Below, piece by piece: positions 2,927 to 32,000 of a stretch of DNA of 32,000 bases. The stretch comes from Sinorhizobium meliloti. Lineage in GTDB: Bacteria > Pseudomonadota > Alphaproteobacteria > Rhizobiales > Rhizobiaceae. The notes under the pieces were generated by a model. It saw only the letters and a program-made list of their open reading frames with translations, made no database searches and had not been told where the DNA came from. The stretch spans positions 60,001 through 92,000 of the forward strand of contig NZ_JAGIOS010000004.1 of NCBI RefSeq assembly GCF_017876815.1, in the 5' to 3' direction. The translations under genes were made by a program, and so were the position numbers. How positions within the stretch are numbered: the stretch's first letter is position 1; the number at the start of each line of letters is the position of its first letter.

Positions 2927-4986
2927 TTAAGTATCTGTAAACATTGGAAGCGTCTCCGCGTCGGCGATGTGACACGGGCGCGCCTTTCGGGCTATCGCGG
3001 CTTGGACCGTCGCAGAAGCCAGGTCGCTGGCCCGGATTTGGTACGGCGCGCCGGGAACCACCTGCTCAGCAGACAACATCTTCGTCTTGATCAGGTGGCG
3101 TATCCGATGGTTGGTAACGCCCAAGGCCGCCGCAGCCTCTGTCATGGTCATCCACTCGCCGTCCTTGTCTGCTGATTTGTACGCGTGGATTGCGCGTACG
3201 CGCCTTACAGAAGCGACACGGTGTGCCGTCCAGGTTTTTCCTTGCCCCGTGGGCATGCCCATTCGATTGAGCGACGCGGCGATATGTTCATCCGACCAGC
3301 GCCCAGCCATGCTGCGCATCACCCCCAGCGCATCCTCCGTGGTGGCACAACCGTGCTCGCCGCTCTGGGGTTTGCGTACTTTTAGCTCTGAATGCTGACC
3401 ACCCTTCCAATGGATCGTCAGCACCACCTCACGCACCGCATCGTCGACATCAACGACAATGTCGGCAATCATGGTACGGAGCAATTGCTGGCGCGCGCGC
3501 ATGGTCACATCGGGTGAATCCCAGGCAGCCTGTAGATTATCGGCAAGGTTCGTGAAGGTGTCTGGGTCGACCTCGATGGTCGAAGGACTGTCGGCAGGCT
3601 TGCGCACTTCCAGGTCTCGCACGCGGCGTAACGCAGTCTCCCAATTCTTCTCAAGCTGCGCAGCAATCAGACGGTTGTCGGGGTCACATGCCGCATAGCG
3701 CCGCTCGGCAAGGCTAGCCTCGTAGCGGGCCTGCCGCAGTTCCAAATCGTGAATGTGGCGCTGATCTTCCTGTCGCTCCCGGTGCATCCGCTCTGCTTCA
3801 AAGGTCGCCTCGATTGCTAACGGTTCTACCGCGCGCAACAACTCGCGCGCAACCGCCGCGTCGACCCGCGGGCCGCCGAACGTCATGCATCGCGGCAAGC
3901 CCATCATCAGATTTGGCTTGTCGCAGCGATAGACCGGCCGACTTTGCGGATTGCCCGTATAGGCAACACTTAGTCGCCGCCCACACCGTCCGCAGGTCAG
4001 TAGACCCGATAATAGCGCCTTGCCGCCGCGGCCCGATTTGGTCCCGCCCGAGCGGCCATAATTGTTAAGCGCCAGTTGCTGTTGGTTGCGCTCGTACTCG
4101 TCCCAGGTGATGTAACCTTCGTGATGGTCTCTGATCATTACCTCCCACGTGCCAGCCGGCTTGCCGTGCCCGTAAGTCCGCCGCGCCCGGCCATCGACGT
4201 TGGCAGTCCGCTTCTCGCTCTTTCCATAAACATAGACGCCGGCATAGAAGGGGTTTTTGAGCATTACGGTAGCGGACTGGCGTCCAGACGAAGCTGGTCA
4301 TGCGACCTTCATCGGACGGCCGTGGGAAATGGACCTGATCCTTCGTCATCGACAGCAGCACCTGACGTGCACTTCCAAGCTCATGGAAGCGGGTGAAGAT
4401 GGATCGGATTACCTCCTGCAGACGCAGATCAGGATCAAGCCCGAGCCCGGCCTCTCTATGCCAGATGTAGCCGAACGGTACAGAAAGGCGCAATTCGCCG
4501 CGCCGCGCCTTCGATCTGGCGGCATCGAGCATTCGGGCTCTTAGCACACCCAATTCAAACTCGCTGATACTGCCCTTCATGCCCAGTAGCAGACGATCGT
4601 TGGGCCGACATGGATTGTAGACACCGTCATGGTCTATGACGCGGGCTTCAACGAGACCGCATAGTTCGAGCAGATGGTGCCAGTCGCGGCCGTTGCGTGC
4701 GAGCCGTGAGGCATCGAAACACAAAACGGCACCAACTTTGCCGGCGCACAACAAGGCGACGAGACGATCAAAGCCGGGGCGTGCAACCGTTCCGCTGGCA
4801 GAGCGTCCGAGGTCGTCGTCGATGACCTCAATGTCGCCGAAGCCGCGTTGTCGCGCGACGTCAACAAGATCATACTGGTCGCTGGCTTTCCAGATTGGTC
4901 ATGACCTGCGACTGAGTGGATTGCCGCACATAAACGACTGCCTTGCGCGCGAGTAGCGCTGCCGGAATTAAGTCAGTGCTGGTCAT
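2927..4986 (-). pseudogene. Large serine recombinase of copy X, with at least two frameshifts
   Basis: The start reads MTSTDLIPAALLARKAVVYVRQSTQSQVMTNLESQR, and a frameshift near 4885 precedes QYDLVDVARQRGFGDIEVIDDDLGRSASGTVARPGFDRLVALLCAGKVGAVLCFDASRLARNGRDWHHL... A second shift lies near 4270 before MLKNPFYAGVYVYG..HEGYITWDEYERNQ..CGRCGRRL... It is colinear with the intact 696-aa paralog at 7540-9630. Confidence 0.85.
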
Positions 4987-5127
4987 CGTTGAGCTCCTCG
5001 ACGACCAGACCGGCAGCCTGCATCAGCAGGCAAGCCAGTGTTGATGTCGCCTGCTTGCGCTCTTTGTCGCTCAGTCCGTCGAGTGTTCGCGCCTTGAATA
5101 TCAGGTCGAGCTGTCGGCCCGACGCCG
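4973..5127 (-). pseudogene. C-terminal part of small ORF b of copy X, cut by IS66-B
   Basis: The translation ..GRQLDLIFKARTLDGLSDKERKQATSTLACLLMQAAGLVVEELNDDQH* is homologous to the tail of ORF b in copy Y (..DQLVLELERQ..GLVETLADLLLEALE..DDHEDHV*). The N-terminal 12 codons lie at 12279-12252. Confidence 0.5.
5120..5127. repeat. 8-bp target-site duplication of IS66-B (CGACGCCG), left copy
   Basis: CGACGCCG immediately precedes GTAAGCG at 5128, and an identical octamer lies at 12244-12251 just beyond the other terminus. IS66-family elements are known to make 8-bp duplications. Confidence 0.85.
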
Positions 5128-5149
5128 GTAAGCGCTCATTTCCATGCGC
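5128..5149. repeat. IS66-B terminal inverted repeat (tnpC-proximal end)
   Basis: GTAAGCGCTCATTTCCATGCGC is identical to the reverse complement of the other end. Confidence 0.85.
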
Positions 5150-5198: not shown

Positions 5199-6818
5199 TC
5201 AGGCAGCGGCTGCTTTGGTGAAGTTGAAGGGCAAGAGATCGGTGATGTCAGTATCTGTTGCGCGCTGTGGCAATTCACTAAGCACGTGGCGCAAGTAGGC
5301 CAAGGGCTCGACGCCGCAGGCGCGACAGGTCAGCATGATGCTGTAGACGACAGCGCTGGCCCTGGCTCCCTCCACGGTATCGCTGAACAGCCAGGATTTT
5401 CTTCCAGTGGCAAAAATCCTGATATCGCGTTCGAGAAGGTTGTTGTCGATCGACATCCTGCCGTCTTCGGTGTAGCGCGTCAGGTATTCCCACTGGTTCA
5501 GGGTGTAGGATACGGCGTCGCCGATCTTGCTATCGGGCAAGACCTTCGGCGCGATGTCATCGAGCCATGCCTTGAGAGCGATCAGGATGGGGACGCTGTG
5601 TTGTTGGCGGAAACGGCGGATGCAGTCGGCTTGCGTTTCGCCAACTTCCGGCTTTTCGTTCTTGGCTTGGCTTTCAATCCGGTAGAGCTGCTCGAAGAAC
5701 TTCAGCGCCTGCTCCGGCGGTCCGCCGCCTTTCTTCCTTGTCTTCAGAGCATCGATGAAGCGACGCCTCGAATGGGCCATACACCCAATATGGGTCGCTC
5801 CTGCCAGAGTGCGCCAGGCGGTGTAACCATCGCTCATCAATATGCCGCGGTAGTCGCCGAGGAAGGCCTGCGGATAAATCTGGCCGCGGCCGGGTTGATA
5901 ATCGAGCAGCACGATCGGCTCGCCGCTGTCTTCACCGCTCCTGTATGCCCACATGAAGGATGTGCTGGTGGCCTCCCTGTCCTTTTCCTTCAGCACCTGG
6001 ACCGTTGTCTCGTCACCATGGATCAGCGGTTGTGAACGAAGCCGGAGCTTCAGCGCGTCATAGATGCGAGAGAGATGCCTCTCGCTCGAGCCGATCACCC
6101 AGTGACCCAAAGCACCGCGGCTGACGGGAACGCCGGCGCGCTCGAAGGCCTGGGCGAGACGGTAGAGCGGCGTGCCGTCGATGTATTTGTGGACCAGTGC
6201 AAATGCCAGCGTCGAGGCCGTGGCGATGCTGCCCGGCAAGGGCTGCGCGGGCATTGGCGCGAGAACGACAGGCGTGTTGATGCCGGTCCGGTCGCAATGG
6301 CGGCAGGCGTACTTGAACCGCACATTCTGCAGGACCTTGGCCTTCACCTCGATATGGAGCTGCTCGGTGACGGCCTCACCCATGCGATGCATCTGATGAC
6401 GGCAGCAAGGGCAGGCCTTCTGGCCGTCGGCAAGGTCATACTCGACACGCTCGCGCGGCAGGTGTTCCGGCAGGGGCTTGCGGCCACGCTTCTTGCCCTC
6501 CGGTTTCTCGATCGTCGCAAAACCGGTTTCCGGCAGGTCGACGACCTCGCCATCTTCTCCGCTGGCGTCGTCTTCATCGGCAACCTGCTCGGCTTCATCG
6601 AAGAGGCGGTCCACATGCTTTTCGCTCTTCGGCGCAAAACGATGCAGCCGCGCCAGCTCCAACTCTTCCTCGAGCTTGACCACGCGGGCGCTGAGCGCTT
6701 CTTTCTCGGCTTTCAGCGCGGCGATTTCGGCAGCATTTGCCGCCAACTGCGCCATCAGTTCTGCAACGCTTGGTTCGCCGGATCGAGTCATCGTAGTTTT
6801 GAATCTGAACCGCACCAC
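5199..6818 (-). CDS. tnpC: IS66 transposase TnpC of element B, intact (539 aa)
   Basis: This full-length ORF has a leucine-zipper-like N-terminus, CPCC..CRHC motifs, ..GDETTVQVL.., ..SIDNNLLERDIRIFATGRKSWLF.. and a conserved C-terminus. Confidence 0.9.
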   Translation of the reverse strand: MVRFRFKTTMTRSGEPSVAELMAQLAANAAEIAALKAEKEALSARVVKLEEELELARLHRFAPKSEKHVDRLFDEAEQVADEDDASGEDGEVVDLPETGFATIEKPEGKKRGRKPLPEHLPRERVEYDLADGQKACPCCRHQMHRMGEAVTEQLHIEVKAKVLQNVRFKYACRHCDRTGINTPVVLAPMPAQPLPGSIATASTLAFALVHKYIDGTPLYRLAQAFERAGVPVSRGALGHWVIGSSERHLSRIYDALKLRLRSQPLIHGDETTVQVLKEKDREATSTSFMWAYRSGEDSGEPIVLLDYQPGRGQIYPQAFLGDYRGILMSDGYTAWRTLAGATHIGCMAHSRRRFIDALKTRKKGGGPPEQALKFFEQLYRIESQAKNEKPEVGETQADCIRRFRQQHSVPILIALKAWLDDIAPKVLPDSKIGDAVSYTLNQWEYLTRYTEDGRMSIDNNLLERDIRIFATGRKSWLFSDTVEGARASAVVYSIMLTCRACGVEPLAYLRHVLSELPQRATDTDITDLLPFNFTKAAAA

Positions 6819-6845: not shown

Positions 6846-7046
6846 TCAGCCGGCGATCTGATATTGCCGCACAGGGTGGCGCACCATGGCGTCGATATCG
6901 ATGCCGTCGAGAATCCAGTGAAGCTGCTCAGTCGAAAGCGTCACCACCGCCGTCTCCCGGCGTGGCCATCTGAACCGATCTTCGGTCAATCGCTTCAGGA
7001 CCATCACAAAACCGGACCGATCGAAGAACAGGAGCTTCATCCGGTC
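6846..7046 (-). pseudogene. tnpB: IS66 TnpB of element B, C-terminal 66 codons (split by LSR copy Y)
   Basis: The translation is DRMKLLFFDRSGFVMVLKRLTEDRFRWPRRETAVVTLSTEQLHWILDGIDIDAMVRHP... Joined to 9810-9658 it gives an in-frame 117-aa TnpB, the normal size (the intact copy at 24479-24835 is 118 aa). Confidence 0.85.
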
Positions 7047-7126
7047 ACGCCAGCGACCGACATTCTACATACGGTTTTCGTTTTGCGACGATAGCCTATC
7101 CGTGGCATCCACTATTCGGCTGCAAG

Positions 7127-7543
7127 GTGCAGGTCTCGCGTTATCGTCGCGGCAAGACGCTGATGCGAATCCATACGGACGAGCGTCCCGATCATCTCTC
7201 CCGTGAGTTGCCGAACTGGATGTTTGACGAGACTTATTGCAGCGGCATGAGGCTTGGATCACCCGAGATCAGCATTGATGGCCTGAATGAATTGGCGGCC
7301 GCGTTGGCGTCGTTCGACGCGACTCAGGCAGGAGGCGCAAGATCTCGTCCTTCGAGGAAGAAGGAGAAGGGTGATGCGAAGCAGGCGACATCAAAATCGC
7401 GACCAACTCGTTCTGGAGTTGGAGCGTCAAAATCGTCAGGTTCCGGTGGTCAAGAACGTCAAAGGACTGGTGGAAACGCTGGCGGATCTTCTGTTGGAGG
7501 CTTTGGAAGCGAGCAGAACGGCGAAGACGGGAGGCGTAGATGA
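7127..7543 (+). CDS. Small ORF a of copy Y (hypothetical; conserved N-terminal WM-D---C-GM-LG motif)
   Basis: It starts with GTG, and its stop overlaps the recombinase ATG as ATGA (7540-7543). The N-terminal half (..LPNWMFDETYCSGMRLGSPEISIDGLNELAAAL..) is homologous to copy X (..AGWMVDPVVCAGMTMGLARVDLAALIELNGL..). The C-terminal half is low-complexity R/G/S and may be out of frame. Confidence 0.4.
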   Translation: MQVSRYRRGKTLMRIHTDERPDHLSRELPNWMFDETYCSGMRLGSPEISIDGLNELAAALASFDATQAGGARSRPSRKKEKGDAKQATSKSRPTRSGVGASKSSGSGGQERQRTGGNAGGSSVGGFGSEQNGEDGRRR

Positions 7544-7562
7544 CCACGAAGATCACGTCTGA
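7374..7562 (+). CDS. Small ORF b of copy Y (62 aa, hypothetical; basic N-terminus, helical acidic C-terminus)
   Basis: The ATG at 7374 is preceded by AAGGAG (7361-7366). The product is MRSRRHQNRDQLVLELERQNRQVPVVKNVKGLVETLADLLLEALEASRTAKTGGVDDHEDHV. The same frame, the same Shine-Dalgarno plus ATG arrangement and a homologous sequence occur in copy X. It overlaps the recombinase start. Confidence 0.4.
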   Translation: MRSRRHQNRDQLVLELERQNRQVPVVKNVKGLVETLADLLLEALEASRTAKTGGVDDHEDHV

Positions 7563-9630
7563 CCATCTGGGCCGCGCCGCGGTGGTCTATGTCCGCCAGT
7601 CAACCATGGCGCAAGTGACGGGCAATCTCGAAAGCCAGCGCCGGCAATATGATCTGGCTGGCGCCGCCGCAACGACCGGGTTTGCATCGGTAACTGTGAT
7701 TGATGATGACCTTGGACGCTCAGGCTCAGGCAGCGTGGAGCGACCCGGGTTTGAGCGGCTTGTCGCGCTGGTCTGCTCAGGCAATGTAGGAGCGGTCTAC
7801 TGCATCGAGGCATCGCGTCTGGCGCGCAATGGGCGGGACTGGCATCATCTGATCGATCTGTGCGCGCTCACCGGTACGCTGGTCATCGATCCAGATGGCG
7901 CCTTTGATCCAAGGCTTGTCAATGATCGTCTGCTGCTTGGGCTGAAAGGCACGATGTCGGAGTACGAACTGAGCTTGATCCGTCAGCGCGGCATTGCCGC
8001 GCGCGATTCCAAGGCGGGACGCGGGGAGTTCCGGTTCATGTTACCTCCGGGCTTCTGCTGGAGTGAGGCGGGCAAGATCGAGATCGATCCGGACGAACAT
8101 GTGGCGGAGACGATCAAGCTCGTCTTTGCCAAATTCCGGGAACTGGGAAGTGGGCGACAAGTCTTTTTGTGGCTGCGGTCGGCCGATATCAAGATGCCCG
8201 TCGTCTTGCGCAACGTGGAAGTGCGCAAGCTCGTCTGGAAGGCGCCAGCTTATCATAGCGTCATGCAGACCCTCCACAATCCACTCTACGCGGGCGCCTA
8301 TGCCTTCGGAAGGCGAGCACAACGAACGTTGATCATCGATGGTCGCGCTCGCAAGGCCAACGGGCTGCGCAAGCCCAGGGATGATTGGAGTGTATTGCTG
8401 CGCGACAATCATGAAGGTTACATCACCTGGCGGGAGTATGAAGAGAACCAGAAGCTTCTGACCGAGAACGCACACATGAAGAGGAATTGTGATCGCAAAT
8501 CGGCGCGCGGCGGCCGTGCCCTATTGACGGGACTGATGCGATGCGGCCGCTGTGGCCGAATGATGCGCGTCTTCTACGGCAGCGCAAAAGGCAACGCGCA
8601 TCGCTATCAGTGCCGCGGCGACGACGCTCGTGTGGGTCTTGGGCTTTGCATCGGAATTGGCGGCGTGAGGGTCGATCGTGCCGTGGCCACTCAGATTCTG
8701 GAAGCGGTTTCGGATCGCGCTGTCGAAGCGGCGATCTTCGCCTCGGATCAGGTCGAGCGGTCCGCAAGAGATGTTATAGCGGCAATTGAGCGGGACCTTG
8801 AAGGCGCACGCTATGAGGCGTCACTGGCCGGACGCAGATACGAGCTGGTCGATCCGGCCAAACGTCATGTCGCACGCGAACTGGAAGCCCGTTGGAACGA
8901 TGCACTGGAACGTGTGAGCGTGCTTGAGCGCAAGATCGAAGAATTGTCCGCGCTGTCGGCAGCACGTCCTGCAATTGATCGTGGTCGGCTTCTACAGCTT
9001 GCCCATGACTTACCGACAGTCTGGAATGCACCATCAACCGATACGCGGACAAAGCAGCGGCTCATCCATATTCTGGTCCAGGAGATCATCTGCGATCTCG
9101 ACGATACGACCAACGAGGCTGTGCTCTTGATCCATTGGACCGGCGGTCGCCATACCGAAGTGCGCGTGGCGCGGGTCAAGACTGGCCGATATCCGAGCGA
9201 CATGGCACCGCCCGCCGTAGAGGCGCTACGAAAGCTGGGCGGACATTGGCCAGATCGGGAGCTCGCAGTGTCCCTCAATCGGATGCTTTGCAAGACCGGT
9301 GATGGTGAGGGTTGGACGGCCGTGCGTGTCCGCGACATGCGCGAGCGGCTGGGCATTCCAGAATATGATCCCACAAAAGCGGGCAGTCCCGTGATTAGCC
9401 TGATGAAAGCTGCCGAAAAGCTCGGTATCTGCATCGGATCGGCCAAGAGCCTGGTGCAGAAAGGAATTCTACCTGCAACGCAGATCCTTCCAGGCTCGCC
9501 ATGGATGGTTCCCATAGAAGCACTAACGTCAGAGGCCGTTCTGATAGGGGTGCAGGGTGTGGTTGGGCGGCGGCCCAAGATTTATGAAGATTATCAATAC
9601 GATAAAGTTGTCAGATTGCCCGGACTCTAA
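7540..9630 (+). CDS. Large serine recombinase (696 aa), intact
   Basis: It has a resolvase-type catalytic N-terminus (AVVYVRQSTMAQV..ESQRRQY..DDDLGRSGS..IEASRLARNGRDWHHL), a recombinase domain (..NPLYAGAYAFGRR..), a zinc-ribbon-like CGRCGRMM..YQC, a long coiled-coil-like region and a C-terminal extension. Confidence 0.9.
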   Translation: MTTKITSDHLGRAAVVYVRQSTMAQVTGNLESQRRQYDLAGAAATTGFASVTVIDDDLGRSGSGSVERPGFERLVALVCSGNVGAVYCIEASRLARNGRDWHHLIDLCALTGTLVIDPDGAFDPRLVNDRLLLGLKGTMSEYELSLIRQRGIAARDSKAGRGEFRFMLPPGFCWSEAGKIEIDPDEHVAETIKLVFAKFRELGSGRQVFLWLRSADIKMPVVLRNVEVRKLVWKAPAYHSVMQTLHNPLYAGAYAFGRRAQRTLIIDGRARKANGLRKPRDDWSVLLRDNHEGYITWREYEENQKLLTENAHMKRNCDRKSARGGRALLTGLMRCGRCGRMMRVFYGSAKGNAHRYQCRGDDARVGLGLCIGIGGVRVDRAVATQILEAVSDRAVEAAIFASDQVERSARDVIAAIERDLEGARYEASLAGRRYELVDPAKRHVARELEARWNDALERVSVLERKIEELSALSAARPAIDRGRLLQLAHDLPTVWNAPSTDTRTKQRLIHILVQEIICDLDDTTNEAVLLIHWTGGRHTEVRVARVKTGRYPSDMAPPAVEALRKLGGHWPDRELAVSLNRMLCKTGDGEGWTAVRVRDMRERLGIPEYDPTKAGSPVISLMKAAEKLGICIGSAKSLVQKGILPATQILPGSPWMVPIEALTSEAVLIGVQGVVGRRPKIYEDYQYDKVVRLPGL

Positions 9631-9657
9631 CAGAGGGATGCATTATGAAACGCGCTG

Positions 9658-9810
9658 GCGGCGGCGATTGCAAAAGGCAAAGACCGCAGGCGCAAACGGG
9701 TCGAGCTCCATCGTCTCCTGCACCAGGACCGCAAGGCTGTTGATGCCGGCGCGGAAGTCGATCGGTTCGCGGTGCAGGTAGACCTTGAGATCAGCGCCCA
9801 GTCTGAACAT
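9658..9810 (-). pseudogene. tnpB: IS66 TnpB of element B, N-terminal 51 codons
   Basis: The translation MFRLGADLKVYLHREPIDFRAGINSLAVLVQETMELDPFAPAVFAFCNRRR then runs into the end of copy Y. Confidence 0.85.
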
Positions 9811-10249
9811 GGCCCAATGCTCCAATGACAGCCGTCAACGCATCCACATCCCTGCATTCCAGCGAAAGCTTCACGCCGTTTGGCAGCAACGCGCTGATTT
9901 TGGATAAACCTGACGGATGGCCCGTTTTCTCCAGTGATGCTCGTTGTTCTTCATCACACGTGACCGACATATCCAGCGAGCAGGTCCCGACAGGCAGGCT
10001 GCCGTCTGCTGCCACGACCGGGATAAACGCCGATCGTGGAGATACCGCCAGGGGGCCAGACTCCCTGGCCTCCTTGACCCACTTGCGCAGTAGGTTGGCA
10101 TTGATCCCATGCGTAAGCGCAAGGCCGGATATCGACACACCAGGTTCAAGGCAGGCCGCAACAAGCCGCGCCTTTGATCCTGGATCGTAGCGGCGTCGAC
10201 CATCGCGCCCCACATGCCGCACACGCAGTTTCTGCTCTTCGTCACTCAT
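9791..10249 (-). CDS. tnpA: IS66 TnpA (Orf1) of element B
   Basis: This 152-aa ORF has the HTH-like segment ..SKARLVAACLEPGVSISGLALTHGINANLLRKWVKE.. typical of IS66 Orf1. It overlaps the tnpB start. Confidence 0.85.
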   Translation of the reverse strand: MSDEEQKLRVRHVGRDGRRRYDPGSKARLVAACLEPGVSISGLALTHGINANLLRKWVKEARESGPLAVSPRSAFIPVVAADGSLPVGTCSLDMSVTCDEEQRASLEKTGHPSGLSKISALLPNGVKLSLECRDVDALTAVIGALGHVQTGR

Positions 10250-10308: not shown

Positions 10309-10330
10309 GGCGCATGGAAATGAGCGCTTA
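10309..10330. repeat. IS66-B terminal inverted repeat (tnpA-proximal end), lacking its outermost base, which sits at 12243 beyond the intron
   Basis: The plus strand reads GGCGCATGGAAATGAGCGCTTA, followed by the intron GTGCGG. Confidence 0.85.
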
Positions 10331-10358
10331 GTGCGGCTGCAAAGCCGATGAAAGATAG

Positions 10359-12185
10359 TTGATGAAAGTTCAACACGGAGAAGAAGTGGCGAATCACTCT
10401 GACCCCGAGTCATGCGGCGCACATCGCGAGGTGTGCGTCGAAGCGTTGACAGGGGAAACCGGCAGGCCGGCCATTGAGCCGCGAAATGATCAATTCGGGA
10501 TGCCGACGCTGTTAAGCGAAGCGGAAGGCAACACGGTGCATGGCGTCAATCGCAAGCCATGCCCCGATCCCGCGCGGTCGGAGACCCTGTGCATGTCGGG
10601 AAGTCTTTCATACGGAAGCAGCGAGATCTCATCAGTGTCCAGTGCAAATGGACTGGACGGGGCTGGGAAGGTCGTTGATCATAATCCGGTCGTCAACGCT
10701 GATGAGAAGTCGGATACACCCATAGTACCGCAGAAGTTGCCGAACAAAGGAGATGATCCTGCGGAGGCAATGGAGGGAAGGGGTGTAATCGGAGGGAACG
10801 CCTTTGAGACTCCAGCGTGCCGGACGCAGAGCCGGATAAAACACGCTTCGATGGGGATCGAAGGTGTACGGGAAGCCGCCAAGCGGGACCCGAAGATGCG
10901 TTTCACGGCGCTGATGCACCACATCACTCCGACGCTATTGGTGAAGAGCTTCCATGCGCTGCGCAAGCAAGCGGCGAGCGGTGTGGATGGCGTGACGTGG
11001 TACGACTATGAGAAGACCCTCGAAGGGCGCGTGCACGAACTGCACCGGGAGATTCAATCCGGTGCCTATCGTGCTCAACCCTCCCGACGGGTCTACATTC
11101 CGAAGAATGACGGCAGGCTCCGTCCTCTCGGCATTGCAGCGCTGGAAGAAAAAGTCGTGCAGATGGCCGTCACCACGGTTCTGAACGCGATCTATGAGCA
11201 AGACTTCCTCGGCTTCTCATACGGGTTCCGGCAAGGAAGGGGCCAGCATGACGCGCTGGACGCCTTGTGGGTTGGGATCGACAAGCGGAAGATCAACTGG
11301 ATACTGGACGCGGATATTCGCTCGTTTTACGATGAAATCGATCACGAGTGGATGCTTCGTTTCCTGTCGCATCGAGTTGGTGACCGCCGGCTGATACGTC
11401 TGATCCACAAATGGTTGAAAGCGGGCACGATTGAGGATGGCCGCCGCGTCGCATCAACGCGAGGAACTCCTCAGGGCTCTGTAATTAGCCCGGTGCTATC
11501 GAATATCTATCTGCATTACGCATTGGATTTATGGGTCCAGCAATGGCGTACTCGAAATGCTAAAGGCGACGTGATCATTGTACGTTATGCCGACGACAGC
11601 GTGATTGGGTTCCAGTACGAAGGAGAGGCGCAGCGCTTCCTGCAAGCATTGCGGGAGCGTCTCGCTCAGTTTGGTTTGCAGCTACACCCGGAAAAGACGC
11701 GGCTGATACGCTTTGGGCGGTATGCTGCGCGAAACTGCCGGGAGCGTGGTATCCGCAAGCCAGAGACCTTCGACTTTTTGGGATTCACGCACTGCTGCGG
11801 CAGGCGGCGCAATGATGGGGGCTTCAAGATTGTCCGTCTAACGATCAAGAAGCGCATGCGCACGACGCTGGAGGCCATTCGGGGAACGCTTATGCGACGA
11901 CGCCATGAACCGGTGGCAGTAGTAGGTCGGTGGCTACGGCAAGTGTTACAGGGGTATTTGAACTACCATGCGGTGCCAGACAATCTGAGAAGATTGGGAG
12001 GATTCCGCTGGGAAGTTGGTCGCGCTTGGCGACACGCGCTGATGCGTCGGAGCCAACGACACCGGCTGTCTTGGGAGCGTTTCCAAAGGCTGCTTCGCAA
12101 ATACCTGCCACCGTGCCGCCTGATGCATCCGCATCCAGATGCTCGGCTTACCGTCACAACATCCGATAGGAGCCGTATGCGGTAG
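10359..12185 (+). CDS. Group II intron-encoded reverse transcriptase/maturase; the true start is probably internal (ATG 10770 or 10851, or a non-ATG codon near 10690)
   Basis: RT blocks are present (..RVYIPKNDGRLRPLGIAALEEKVVQ.., ..RGTPQGSVISPVLSNIYL.., ..IVRYADDSVIGF..), as is the maturase region (..FDFLGFTH.., ..GYLNYHAVP..). No HNH endonuclease tail was seen. The first ~140 codons run through intron domains I-III. Confidence 0.9.
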   Translation: MMKVQHGEEVANHSDPESCGAHREVCVEALTGETGRPAIEPRNDQFGMPTLLSEAEGNTVHGVNRKPCPDPARSETLCMSGSLSYGSSEISSVSSANGLDGAGKVVDHNPVVNADEKSDTPIVPQKLPNKGDDPAEAMEGRGVIGGNAFETPACRTQSRIKHASMGIEGVREAAKRDPKMRFTALMHHITPTLLVKSFHALRKQAASGVDGVTWYDYEKTLEGRVHELHREIQSGAYRAQPSRRVYIPKNDGRLRPLGIAALEEKVVQMAVTTVLNAIYEQDFLGFSYGFRQGRGQHDALDALWVGIDKRKINWILDADIRSFYDEIDHEWMLRFLSHRVGDRRLIRLIHKWLKAGTIEDGRRVASTRGTPQGSVISPVLSNIYLHYALDLWVQQWRTRNAKGDVIIVRYADDSVIGFQYEGEAQRFLQALRERLAQFGLQLHPEKTRLIRFGRYAARNCRERGIRKPETFDFLGFTHCCGRRRNDGGFKIVRLTIKKRMRTTLEAIRGTLMRRRHEPVAVVGRWLRQVLQGYLNYHAVPDNLRRLGGFRWEVGRAWRHALMRRSQRHRLSWERFQRLLRKYLPPCRLMHPHPDARLTVTTSDRSRMR

Positions 12186-12242
12186 TGCCGCACGTACGGA
12201 TCTGACCGGGGGGCGATGGGTAACCATCGTCCCTACCGGGAC
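12170..12242 (+). ncRNA. Group II intron domains V and VI (catalytic hairpin and branch-point hairpin)
   Basis: The folds were done by hand and are described under the intron feature. Confidence 0.7.
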
Positions 12243-12243
12243 C

Positions 12244-12251
12244 CGACGCCG
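12244..12251. repeat. 8-bp target-site duplication of IS66-B (CGACGCCG), right copy
   Basis: It is identical to 5120-5127. Confidence 0.85.
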
Positions 12252-22859: not shown

Positions 22860-24463
22860 GCCGCCCGTCGCTCCTGACGTGCAATGGCCTCGCGTTCGGC
22901 CTTCCAGGCCCATGGGAAGAGCGTATCCATCCGGTTCGCGGGCACCTTGCCCGAGATGATGCGCTCAAGCACATCGGCAAGCCAGACCTCGGGGTCAACA
23001 CTATTGAGCTTTGCTGTGTTGACGAGCGATGCCAGGACCGCGAAGGACTTGCCACCGCGTTCGTTGCCCACGAACAACGAGTTCTTCCTCGTCAGAGCCA
23101 CCGATTTCATTGAACGCTCGACCACATTGGAGTCCGCTTCGATCCGGCCATCCTCCAGGAAGGCTGCCAGCCCGTTCCAATGATTGAGCGCGTAGGAGAC
23201 GGCCTTGCCCAGCGCCGATTTTGACGACACCTCTTCGCTCAGTTCGGTGAGCTGGACCTTCAGTTCTCGCATGATGGGTGCTGTCTCGCGACGCCGTACC
23301 GTGAGCCGGGTATCGGCACTTTCGCCGCGCAGTTTCGCCTCGATGCGATAGACCTCGGCGATCCTGGCCAGGATCGACAGCGCCTCCGAAGAGCCGGTCA
23401 GCTTGACGACATCGACGAACTTGCGTCGCGCGTGAGCAAGGCAGAACGCCAGCCGCATGGGGGCGACATTGCTCTTCCCCCGGCGCTTGGCCAAGGTTTT
23501 ATAGGCCTGGTATCCATCGACCTGAAGTACGCCGGCAAACGACGACAGTTGCCCCTCGACCTCGCGAGCGCTGCGGCTTTCAGCAAAAGTATAGGCCACC
23601 GCCGGCGGCGCCGGACCATTCCATGGCCGGTCGTCGACCGCCTGCGCCCAGAGTTGACAAAGCTTGGTGCGTTTGCGTCCCGGATCGAGCCGCGGAAGCG
23701 GCGTCTCGTCACAAAACACCCTTGGCTGGGAGCGGATGAAGGCGGTAAGCGCATCGTAGAGAAGCTCGAGCCACCAGGCGACCCGCGTCACCCAGGCGCC
23801 AAGCGTGCCGCGATCGATGATCACGCCGCAGGAGGCAAGCATCTGCGCCTGGCGATGCAGCGGCAGATGCCAGGCAAACTTCGAAACGGCGATATGGGCT
23901 GCAAACGCCGTAGTCACCATGCCGCCGTCCATCACGCGCGCCGGTGCGGGCGCTTGCACAATGACGCTTTCGCAGGCCCGGCATGCATAGCGCGGCCGGA
24001 TCGTCCGCTTCACCCGGACAACCGCCGGCACGATGTCGAGCGCCTCACTGACGTCCGTGCCGATGCAATGAAGCTCGAACGAGCAGCACGGGCAAATCTT
24101 GCTCTCCGGCTCGATGAGCTCTTCATACCGTGAGAGGTGCTTGGGCAAACGGCCGATGTTGCGCGACGGCGATCGCCGCTCCTGTCTTGGCCCTTCAGCC
24201 ACGGGTGCAACATCGTCATTGGCCGCCTCGGGAATGTCGCTGAGATCGCCAAGCTCGAGCGTCGCCTGCGTCGGGTCGATCGCCGTCATCTTCTCCGATT
24301 TCGGTCCAAAGAGCTGACCCTCCAGGAAGGCAACGCGCGCCTTGAGGTCGGCATTCTCCGCATCGAGCGAGAGAATGATCCGGCTCAATTGGGCGGCATC
24401 CTGAGGTAAAGGGTCGGGTCGAAGCGGCATGGCTGACCCTAGCACATGTTCCTGAATCTTCAA
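22856..24463 (-). CDS. tnpC: IS66 transposase TnpC of element C, intact (535 aa)
   Basis: It has CPCC..CRAC motifs, ..CDETPLPRLDPG.., ..DSNVVERSMKSVALTRKNSLFVG.. and a conserved tail. Confidence 0.9.
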   Translation of the reverse strand: MKIQEHVLGSAMPLRPDPLPQDAAQLSRIILSLDAENADLKARVAFLEGQLFGPKSEKMTAIDPTQATLELGDLSDIPEAANDDVAPVAEGPRQERRSPSRNIGRLPKHLSRYEELIEPESKICPCCSFELHCIGTDVSEALDIVPAVVRVKRTIRPRYACRACESVIVQAPAPARVMDGGMVTTAFAAHIAVSKFAWHLPLHRQAQMLASCGVIIDRGTLGAWVTRVAWWLELLYDALTAFIRSQPRVFCDETPLPRLDPGRKRTKLCQLWAQAVDDRPWNGPAPPAVAYTFAESRSAREVEGQLSSFAGVLQVDGYQAYKTLAKRRGKSNVAPMRLAFCLAHARRKFVDVVKLTGSSEALSILARIAEVYRIEAKLRGESADTRLTVRRRETAPIMRELKVQLTELSEEVSSKSALGKAVSYALNHWNGLAAFLEDGRIEADSNVVERSMKSVALTRKNSLFVGNERGGKSFAVLASLVNTAKLNSVDPEVWLADVLERIISGKVPANRMDTLFPWAWKAEREAIARQERRAA

Positions 24464-24478
24464 GCAAATCCAATAAGA

Positions 24479-24835
24479 TCAGCCCACTTTCGTCGGCCGC
24501 TTTACGACGTTCCGTTTAACCCGAGTCCAGTCGATACCGGCCAGCAAAAGCGAGAACTCTTGGCTACTCATCTGCATCGCGCCATCGCGGATCGGTGGCC
24601 AAACGAACTTGCCCGCCTCAAGCCACTTCGTCGCTAGGATCATGCCCGACCCGTCCCAATAAATGCAGCGCAGGCGATCGCACCGCTTGGCGCGGAACAC
24701 AAACACGTCACCACAGTAGGGATCAGCCGAAAGCGCTGACGCCACCAGCGCAACAAGGCCATTCATGCCGCGCCGGAAGTCGACAGGCTGCGTCGCCACC
24801 ATGATCTTCACGCCATTCGGCGAAAGTCCGATCAC
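24479..24835 (-). CDS. tnpB: IS66 TnpB (Orf2) of element C, intact (118 aa)
   Basis: The translation is ..VATQPVDFRRGMNGLVALVASALSADPYCGDVFVFRAKRCDRLRCIYWDGSGMILATKWLEAGKFVWPP... Confidence 0.9.
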   Translation of the reverse strand: MIGLSPNGVKIMVATQPVDFRRGMNGLVALVASALSADPYCGDVFVFRAKRCDRLRCIYWDGSGMILATKWLEAGKFVWPPIRDGAMQMSSQEFSLLLAGIDWTRVKRNVVKRPTKVG

Positions 24836-25278
24836 CGGCGTGCTCGCAACGCTGCCACGATCGCCTGCGCCAACTCGGGCGCCACCGAGCCGATCACGGT
24901 CATGCGTGCTCCGGCAATCTCGATCTCAATTCGGCCGGAAGCAACGGAAGCGATATCCGACGACGCGCTCTGGGGAGGCGCTCGTTCTCCAACGACGGTC
25001 ACCGGCACGAACATGGCCTGCTGCGCGCAGGCTTGCACGGATCGTCGAGCGGTCAGCCCGGCTTGGCGGCGCCAGACATTCAGCAAACCACGGTTGACGC
25101 CCCAGCGCCGGGCGACGGCCGAGATGTTCACGTCGGGTTCTGCGCTTTCAGCAAGGATCCGCGCCTTCTCTTCGTCGGTCCAATTCCGCCGCTGTCGTCG
25201 ACCGGTGATCACCTCGATCCGCCGGTAGACTCCATCATGCCTGGCTTCATCCATGGCTTCATCCATGACTCCAAGCAT
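24832..25278 (-). CDS. tnpA: IS66 TnpA (Orf1) of element C (start uncertain; ORF open to 25347)
   Basis: The translation is ..YRRIEVITGRRQRRNWTDEEKARILAESAEPDVNISAVARRWGVNRGLLNVWRRQ... Confidence 0.8.
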   Translation of the reverse strand: MLGVMDEAMDEARHDGVYRRIEVITGRRQRRNWTDEEKARILAESAEPDVNISAVARRWGVNRGLLNVWRRQAGLTARRSVQACAQQAMFVPVTVVGERAPPQSASSDIASVASGRIEIEIAGARMTVIGSVAPELAQAIVAALRARR

Positions 25279-30859: not shown

Positions 30860-30886
30860 CGGAGCAAGTAGGAGATTAGAACCGCA

Positions 30887-30942
30887 AAAGAAAAAGGCCC
30901 CCCAAACGTCGCCGTCGTGGAAGCCTCTCTCATATCTAAGCA
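30887..30942 (-). ncRNA. Candidate repABC counter-transcribed RNA (ctRNA, incompatibility determinant) in the repB-repC gap
   Basis: On the minus strand, TTGACG (complement of 30971-30976), a 17-nt spacer and GATTCT (complement of 30949-30954) precede a ~56-nt segment. That segment ends in a hairpin (AGGCUUCC..GGGGGGCCU, 30897-30928) followed by UUUUUCUUUU. The position, size and orientation match the known ctRNA of repABC operons. Confidence 0.55.
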
Positions 30943-31035
30943 ATCTGAGAATCGCATTTCCCCGAATCCCCGTCAAGAGTCTTTGGCGCCGTTTTTGGTG
31001 AGCGGATTTCTTTTGCCTTCTGAAAGGTGAAGGAA

Positions 31036-32000
31036 ATGCAGGTTGGAAATGTGACGACGCCCTTCGGGCGGCGGTCGGTTACGCTTGCCCAAATTAAAGG
31101 GCAGATGCGGACGGCCGAAATAAAAGCCGGCAAGAAAGCCGACAAATGGAAGGTGTTTCACGACGCTTGCGATGCGAGGGCGGTGCTCGGCATCCAGGAC
31201 CGTGCTCTGGCGGTCCTGGATGCGCTGTTGACGTTCTACCCGGACAACGAGCTTTGCGAGGAGCGGGGTCTCGTTGTATTCCCGTCGAACGACCAGCTTT
31301 CGGTCCGCGCACACGGCATCGCCGGCACGACTCTGCGCCGGCATCTTGCCGCGCTTGTCGACGCCGGCCTGATCCAGCGCAAGGACAGCGCCAACGGTAA
31401 GCGCTACGCCCGGAAGGACGAAACTGGCGGAATCGAAGAGGCGTTCGGCTTCAGCCTAGCGCCGCTGCTTGCGCGCGCCGAGGAGCTCGCGCACGCCGCG
31501 CAGCAGGTGGCGGCCGAGCGCAAGCGGTTCCGCATCACTAAGGAAGCGCTGTCGATCTGCCGGCGCGACGTCCGCAAGTTGATCAGCGCTGCGGCAGAGG
31601 AGGGGGCTGCCGGCGACTGGGGACACATCGAGGAGATGTTCCTCGGCCTGACCGGGCGTATCCCCCGCACGCCGACGGTTGCCGACCTACAGCAAATCCT
31701 CGAGGAAATGGAGATGCTGCGCGAGGAAATCATCAACCGGCTGGAAATTCAGGAAAATTCCGAAAATATGGACAGCAATGCTGTTCAAAATGAACGTCAC
31801 TTACAGAATTCAAATACCGAATCCAGCAATGAACTTGAACCTAGCTCCGGAAAAGAGCAGGGGGCGAAATCGAGCCAAGCCATCCGGCCGACAAAAGAGC
31901 CGACAAAGGCATTTCCGCTTGGTATGGTGCTGCAGGCATGCCCAGGTATCCGCGACTATGGGCCGAGCGGTAATGTCGAAAGCTGGCGAGACCTGATGTC
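31036..32000 (+). CDS. repC: RepC replication initiator, N-terminal ~321 codons; continues beyond the window end
   Basis: The frame is open from the ATG at 31036 (after AAGGTGAAGGAA) to the window end. The translation reads MQVGNVTTPFGRRSVTLAQIKGQM..DKWKVFHDACDARAVLGIQDRALAVLDALLTFYPDNELCEERGLVVFPSNDQLSVRAHGIAGTTLRRHLAALVDAGLIQRKDSANGKRYARKDETGGIEEAFGFSLAPLLARAEEL... It is missing from the ORF track because it has no stop in the window. Confidence 0.9.
   Translation, partial: MQVGNVTTPFGRRSVTLAQIKGQMRTAEIKAGKKADKWKVFHDACDARAVLGIQDRALAVLDALLTFYPDNELCEERGLVVFPSNDQLSVRAHGIAGTTLRRHLAALVDAGLIQRKDSANGKRYARKDETGGIEEAFGFSLAPLLARAEELAHAAQQVAAERKRFRITKEALSICRRDVRKLISAAAEEGAAGDWGHIEEMFLGLTGRIPRTPTVADLQQILEEMEMLREEIINRLEIQENSENMDSNAVQNERHLQNSNTESSNELEPSSGKEQGAKSSQAIRPTKEPTKAFPLGMVLQACPGIRDYGPSGNVESWRDLM
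31741..31850. other. AT-rich stretch inside repC, candidate oriV
   Basis: There is a local drop in GC (..GGAAATTCAGGAAAATTCCGAAAATATGGACAGCAATGCTGTTCAAAATGAACG..AATTCAAATACCGAATCC..). In characterised repABC plasmids the origin lies in an AT-rich region within repC. Confidence 0.4.

Follow-up and report, generated by a model that had tools for sequence, protein, structure and literature searches.

A 1912-nt class E (IIE) group II intron without an endonuclease domain interrupts the outermost end of an IS66-family insertion sequence (IS66-B) in Sinorhizobium meliloti, one nucleotide inside the terminal inverted repeat, and it very probably arrived there by retrohoming into IS66-B, after or independently of the insertion of the IS itself. 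The intron occupies positions 10331-12242 on the forward strand of the window, by which we mean the whole 32,000-nt stretch of DNA that was analysed, and runs from 5′ GTGCG to 3′ ...GAC. It lies at the tnpA-side end of IS66-B, on the strand opposite the IS genes, and reads outward.

IS66-B carries the tnpA-tnpB-tnpC gene set of the IS66 family, with tnpB in two parts, all on the minus strand: tnpA at 9791-10249 (HTH_Tnp_1, PF01527), the N-terminal half of tnpB at 9643-9825 (PF05717 profile positions 2-47), its C-terminal half at 6846-7040 (profile positions 47-99), and the transposase tnpC at 5199-6818 (PF03050, E 5e-88; NF033517, 424 bits). The tnpC-side terminal inverted repeat, GTAAGCGCTCATTTCCATGCGC, is intact on the plus strand at 5128-5149, and the tnpA-side repeat at 10310-10330 is its reverse complement minus the final C. 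A repeat finder returned these arms as 24 nt with 96% complementarity. Membership of IS66 is also supported by features shared between both copies of the IS in this genome, namely 22-nt repeats beginning GTAAGCG and 8-bp target duplications. We take GTAAGCG to be the IS66 consensus tip, in line with the tips seen among the relatives described below. The 8-bp duplication CGACGCCG is identical at 5120-5127 and 12244-12251 and encloses IS66-B and the intron together. Since tnpB is interrupted by a 2.6-kb insert with a 696-aa large serine recombinase (about 7057-9658, plus strand), IS66-B is already inactive. The same insert also carries a 138-aa ORF, and recombinase gene fragments flanking IS66-B (2927-4754) resemble another copy of it. 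Two more IS66-family transposase genes, at 1826-2890 and 22958-25167, are 32-33% identical to the tnpC of IS66-B, and there is no further CGCTTAC tip elsewhere in the window. A ctRNA (RF00489) and an S-element (RF00490) of the repABC type at 30884-31038 indicate that the window is part of a rhizobial repABC plasmid.

The sequence-only reading of this DNA had proposed that the intron sits one nucleotide inside the IS terminus, and the sequence agrees in each respect: the repeat is complete at 5128-5149, its partner at 10310-10330 lacks only the final C, and that C stands at 12243, directly followed by the second copy of the duplication. The intron begins with GTGCGG at 10331 and ends with ...CCCTACCGGGAC at 12242, thus splitting the inverted repeat between A (10330) and C (12243). 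The 1-2 nt ambiguity that the same reading had allowed for the boundary is removed by an intron-free sister copy of IS66-B in the same genome (C3:579023-587357, 8.3 kb), in which both tips read uninterrupted as ...GCGCTTA-C; the insertion comprises precisely 10331-12242, and no shift of even one base is possible. The sister copy is bracketed by its own 8-bp duplication, GAGCTTGC, and copy-to-copy comparison showed that it lacks the 2.6-kb insert of IS66-B. It has two further insertions, of about 2.6 and 3.1 kb, in tnpC and is therefore also inactive. Both of its tips, together with 5128-5149 on the minus strand, make three empty homing sites in the genome that are identical to the occupied one.

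Judging from its ribozyme domains and reading frame, the intron is apparently full length and intact. Its limits, as set by the intron-free sister site, agree with the group II boundary sequences 5′ GUGYG and 3′ AY. The domain I core lies at 10365-10587 (RF02005, group-II-D1D4-6; 194.8 bits, E 1.4e-57), and a match to RF00029, the model for domains V/VI, covers 12168-12242 with 42.5 bits (gathering score 40) and ends on the proposed 3′ end. Domain V (12170-12202) contains the catalytic AGC at 12171-12173, and the branch-point A of domain VI (12204-12242) is bulged and lies at 12235, 7 nt upstream of the 3′ splice site. The intron-encoded protein (IEP) is a reverse transcriptase/maturase of 471 aa, read on the plus strand from an ATG at 10770 to 12185. 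It matches TIGR04416 (347.9 bits, cut-off 300) and PF00078, has the YADD motif and an X-domain-like tail, and terminates about 130 aa past the RT domain with no HNH match. Its stop codon (12183-12185) falls inside the domain V loop, so that the coding sequence runs into the ribozyme core at its 3′ end. In most relatives the IEP frame stays open for about 390-410 nt upstream of the ATG (10359-10769 here), through domains I-III, and PGAP annotates a 607/608-aa ltrA ORF starting at 10359/10362. We rejected this longer ORF: substitutions in the upstream part are spread nearly evenly over codon positions (e.g., 17/21/24), compared with 80/48/186 in the IEP proper, and the 5′ extension is probably not coding.

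Only one copy of the intron was found in the 7.3-Mb genome. Among PLSDB plasmids, copies 99.1-99.7% identical occur in other S. meliloti and in S. medicae, and copies 93-95% identical in Rhizobium and S. fredii; the PLSDB matches end 1-5 nt beyond the intron. A consensus scan of the plus strand upstream of the intron detected no promoter reading out of the IS, which leaves expression of the intron at this end unexplained.

The intron is class E, endonuclease-less and distinct from the class D intron RmInt2 of the same species, a classification that follows from the domain I model and the IEP. RF02005 is common to this intron and to S.me.I4, a disrupted class E intron on pRmeGR4b (Toro et al. 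2002, as cited in PMC5894124), whereas class D copies match RF01999. In pairwise comparisons the IEP was 54% identical to that of S.me.I4 versus 34-35% to class D IEPs. S. meliloti GR4 carries one copy of RmInt1 (class D) on pRmeGR4b and five on pSymA, as well as four copies of RmInt2 (class D) on pSymA (PMC5894124). Searching these replicons with the IEP gave one broken match at 54% identity and one at 34% on pRmeGR4b, and five matches at 34% and four at 35% on pSymA, counts that reproduce the published GR4 inventory exactly. Two RmInt2-type class D introns are also present in the genome studied here (C3:596194-597357 and C4:159971-161134), with the 5′ exon CTAGTGCCCGTCCATA and the same scores as RmInt2 in GR4.

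The last six bases of the 5′ exon, CGCTTA (IBS1, 10325-10330), are complementary in 6/6 positions to UAAGCG at 10513-10518, which the covariance-model alignment to RF02005 places at the tip of a hairpin, in a 9-nt terminal loop that is unconserved in the model. Domain I sequences from 50 introns were aligned, and this loop was set against each 5′ exon. The aligned introns comprised 19 distinct exon/loop combinations with 17 distinct IBS1 hexamers, and cognate pairing was 6/6 in 15/19 combinations (mean 5.8 pairs), while non-cognate pairing averaged 3.8 pairs and reached 6 in 4%. Single-base variants of the IS66 tip are followed by the loop: CGCATA is matched by UAUGCG at three loci and CGGTTA is compensated by UAACCG, and the exon AUCCUUA is likewise compensated by UAAGGAU. 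Sequence data alone could not make a stronger case for this EBS1.

EBS2 fared differently. The sequence-only reading had named both EBS1 and EBS2 as positions to be confirmed by folding domain I; the structure and covariation upheld EBS1 in its hairpin loop at the place first suggested and gave no such support for EBS2. A candidate EBS2, UCAAUUC (10490-10496), occupies the internal loop on the 5′ side of the EBS1 hairpin and would form 6/7 pairs with a candidate IBS2, GAAATGA (10317-10323, exon -14 to -8), the exception being an A.A mismatch at -11. In relative L075, the same loop contains an EBS2 that pairs perfectly over 8 bp. When we took the longest ungapped duplex between the loop (10482-10499) and exon positions -7 to -22, cognate pairs had no advantage over non-cognate pairs across the family (4.5 vs 4.4), and the register differed between IS66 subgroups. 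Introns with an identical internal loop occupy IS66 repeats that differ at -7 to -14, which fits the report that IIE introns self-splice in vitro without needing EBS2-IBS2 pairing (PMC3753933) and the relaxed state of this pairing in RmInt2 (PMC4615759). For EBS3, every domain I alignment column was scanned against the +1 base and no clean column emerged, because few relatives carry a base other than C at +1.

A search for related introns recovered 80 loci with IEPs 53-98% identical to that of the window. CGCTTA ended the 5′ exon in 30/51 relatives with a readable 5′ junction, one-base variants did so in five more, and +1 was C in all of these loci, one-base variants included, that also had a readable 3′ end. 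An IS66 tnpC or tnpA, 28-94% identical to the window proteins, was present upstream in 21 loci. Introns occupied the tnpC end in nine of these, in the sense of tnpC, and the tnpA end in twelve, and were always outward-reading. For roughly twelve loci whose 5′ exon is CGCTTA, tblastn gave no match to an IS66 protein within 2 kb. On pEm1132a, an ORF annotated by PGAP as an 'IS66-like element ISRm2 family transposase' ends 70 nt before the intron. Other copies of the intron and its relatives thus lie at IS66 tips and not in unrelated targets, with their 5′ exons on record from other genomes, and the initial suggestion that the end of an IS family serves as a repeated intron target holds. One locus from a Pseudomonas MAG (L027:113-157) has a complete IS66 tip (..TATGGAGCGCTTAC), directly after it a second, partial repeat, GTTTATGGAGCGCTTA, and then the intron, an arrangement that looks like two abutted IS ends.

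Hosts of the related introns included Rhizobium, Mesorhizobium, Labrys, Caballeronia, Halothiobacillus, Rhodocyclaceae, Pseudomonas, Methylobacter, Gallionella, Alcaligenaceae and others. In a quick IQ-TREE phylogeny, the introns sharing this target formed one clade (SH-aLRT 99, 36 rows) that spans alpha-, beta- and gammaproteobacteria, and within it only a small branch (L034/L020/L023) had changed EBS1 and target. More distant class E introns were found in unrelated targets, most of them still with C at +1. The 7-nt tip GTAAGCG is common to very different IS66-family members, at both ends and on opposite strands, which suggests that this intron clade uses IS66 tips as a regular, harmless and horizontally travelling landing site.

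A plausible route into IS66-B begins with pairing. The intron RNP would locate its DNA target through EBS1 (UAAGCG) and CGCTTA, which corresponds to positions 2-7 of the inverted repeat read outward, and the terminal C of the repeat (12243) would serve as the first 3′-exon base (IBS3), the +1 base preferred by the class. The weak EBS2 contact (UCAAUUC/GAAAUGA) may add affinity and looks dispensable. The intron RNA would then reverse-splice between A and C on the strand carrying CGCTTA/C, where the slash marks the insertion point. Endonuclease-less RmInt1 primes DNA synthesis from nascent DNA at the replication fork, and copying of this intron was presumably primed in the same way.

By analogy with other systems, an insertion of this kind should disable the invaded IS66 end for transposition, since it cuts the terminal base off from the remainder of the repeat. 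In a rival reading, the intron entered an ancestral IS66 once and has since been carried as a passenger by transposition of the IS. The 8-bp duplication encloses IS and intron alike, and the order of events is unreadable from this copy alone. Yet the transposase would then have to act on a repeat split by 1.9 kb, and the sister copy of the same IS is without the intron. In addition, introns that are almost the same (IEPs 96-98% identical, EBS loops identical) are found at either end of IS66 members whose repeats differ and whose TnpC proteins are 67-94% identical, and EBS1 covaries with single-base variants of the tip. We therefore regard carriage from a single ancestral entry as very improbable. 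The idea of a one-off ectopic insertion whose IS66 tip is coincidental would account for the single copy in the genome, but it is refuted by the recurrence of the same junction in 30 or more relatives from Rhizobium to Gallionella, by their IS66 context and by the covariation of EBS1, and it has a negligible probability. Identity with RmInt2, or with another class D relative of RmInt1 behaving as in ISRm17, deserved attention since RmInt2 homes into IS inverted repeats in S. meliloti (PMC4615759) and RmInt2-type copies occur in this very genome. That identity is likewise rejected with near certainty: the IEPs of RmInt1 and RmInt2 share only 34-35% identity with that of this intron, both of those introns match RF01999 and not RF02005, and the RmInt2 junction (...CTAGTGCCCrTCCATA/.../AAC..) apparently lies in a different repeat, so neither a close relationship to RmInt1/RmInt2 nor the ISRm17 target applies.

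Whether the intron still moves is a separate matter. Its current mobility in this genome is unproven because it is present as a single copy and the three identical homing sites are empty. The intron could be an immobile relic, structurally complete and unable to splice or move in this host, and the persistence of empty cognate sites, the lack of a detected promoter reading out of the IS, and the hydrolytic splicing of tested IIE introns in vitro (PMC3753933) are all compatible with such a state. Against it stand the intact ORF and catalytic motifs and the >99% identity to copies in other strains, and we consider immobility possible, if somewhat unlikely. Retrohoming of a class E intron into the tip of IS66-B remains the reading that we favor for the origin of the insertion.

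A stronger version of this reading would make the class E clade an obligate hyperparasite of IS66, one for which the 7-nt tip (EBS1 plus the +1 C) is sufficient and whose RNP may prime from DNA ends or from replication started during IS66 transposition. We think this improbable. If true, the intron would have settled on the part of the IS that is unable to mutate without loss of transposition, the location of its site, a single base away from where the transposase cleaves, may be more than an accident, and intron spread would be coupled to IS activity while the invaded end is disabled.

Introns residing inside IS elements are textbook knowledge. Parasitism of other mobile DNA is an established habit of bacterial introns, to which the IS66-tip intron clearly adds a new case. 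In the literature on IS66/ISRm2 and group II introns, we found no description of class E introns keyed to the IS66 tip, and a prior description is possible in older literature partly outside our reach. The case is exact to the base, with one selfish element specialized on the most constrained few bases of another, and the support for it comes from natural covariation instead of mutagenesis. Symbiosis, virulence and resistance plasmids commonly carry IS66-family elements, and if insertion blocks the invaded end, these introns would act as a natural brake on such elements. The clade-wide target CGCTTA/C also offers a test bed for the minimal pairing required in endonuclease-less IIE retrohoming, including the role of EBS2 in mobility.

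Among known systems, RmInt2 is similar in several ways. It is an endonuclease-less group II intron of the same species that uses an IS inverted repeat, that of ISRm17 (PMC4615759), as its homing site, with two targets per IS on opposite strands and relaxed EBS2/IBS2 pairing that leaves -11 unpaired. It differs in being class D (RF01999) with 35% IEP identity, in its IS and repeat sequence, and in its IBS3, which is A where the IS66-tip intron has C. From the flanks in GR4 and in this genome, the RmInt2 site apparently lies about 16 nt inside the repeat, reading inward. S.me.I4 shares RF02005, 54% IEP identity, the species and the type of plasmid with the IS66-tip intron, but it is broken and its 5′ exon (...CCCTGGGA/GTACG) is not an IS66 tip. 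RmInt1 also colonizes a multicopy IS, ISRm2011-2, whose spread it is believed to restrict (PMC5894124), although that intron is class D and is situated within a transposase gene, that of an element of the IS630 family, and not at the tip of a repeat. Class C (IIC) introns as a whole target a short DNA motif that recurs widely, and no single gene (PMC4424553). Theirs is recognition of a stem-loop at terminators and attC sites without EBS2, whereas the IS66-tip intron uses ordinary EBS1/IBS1 pairing with a 6+1-nt sequence.
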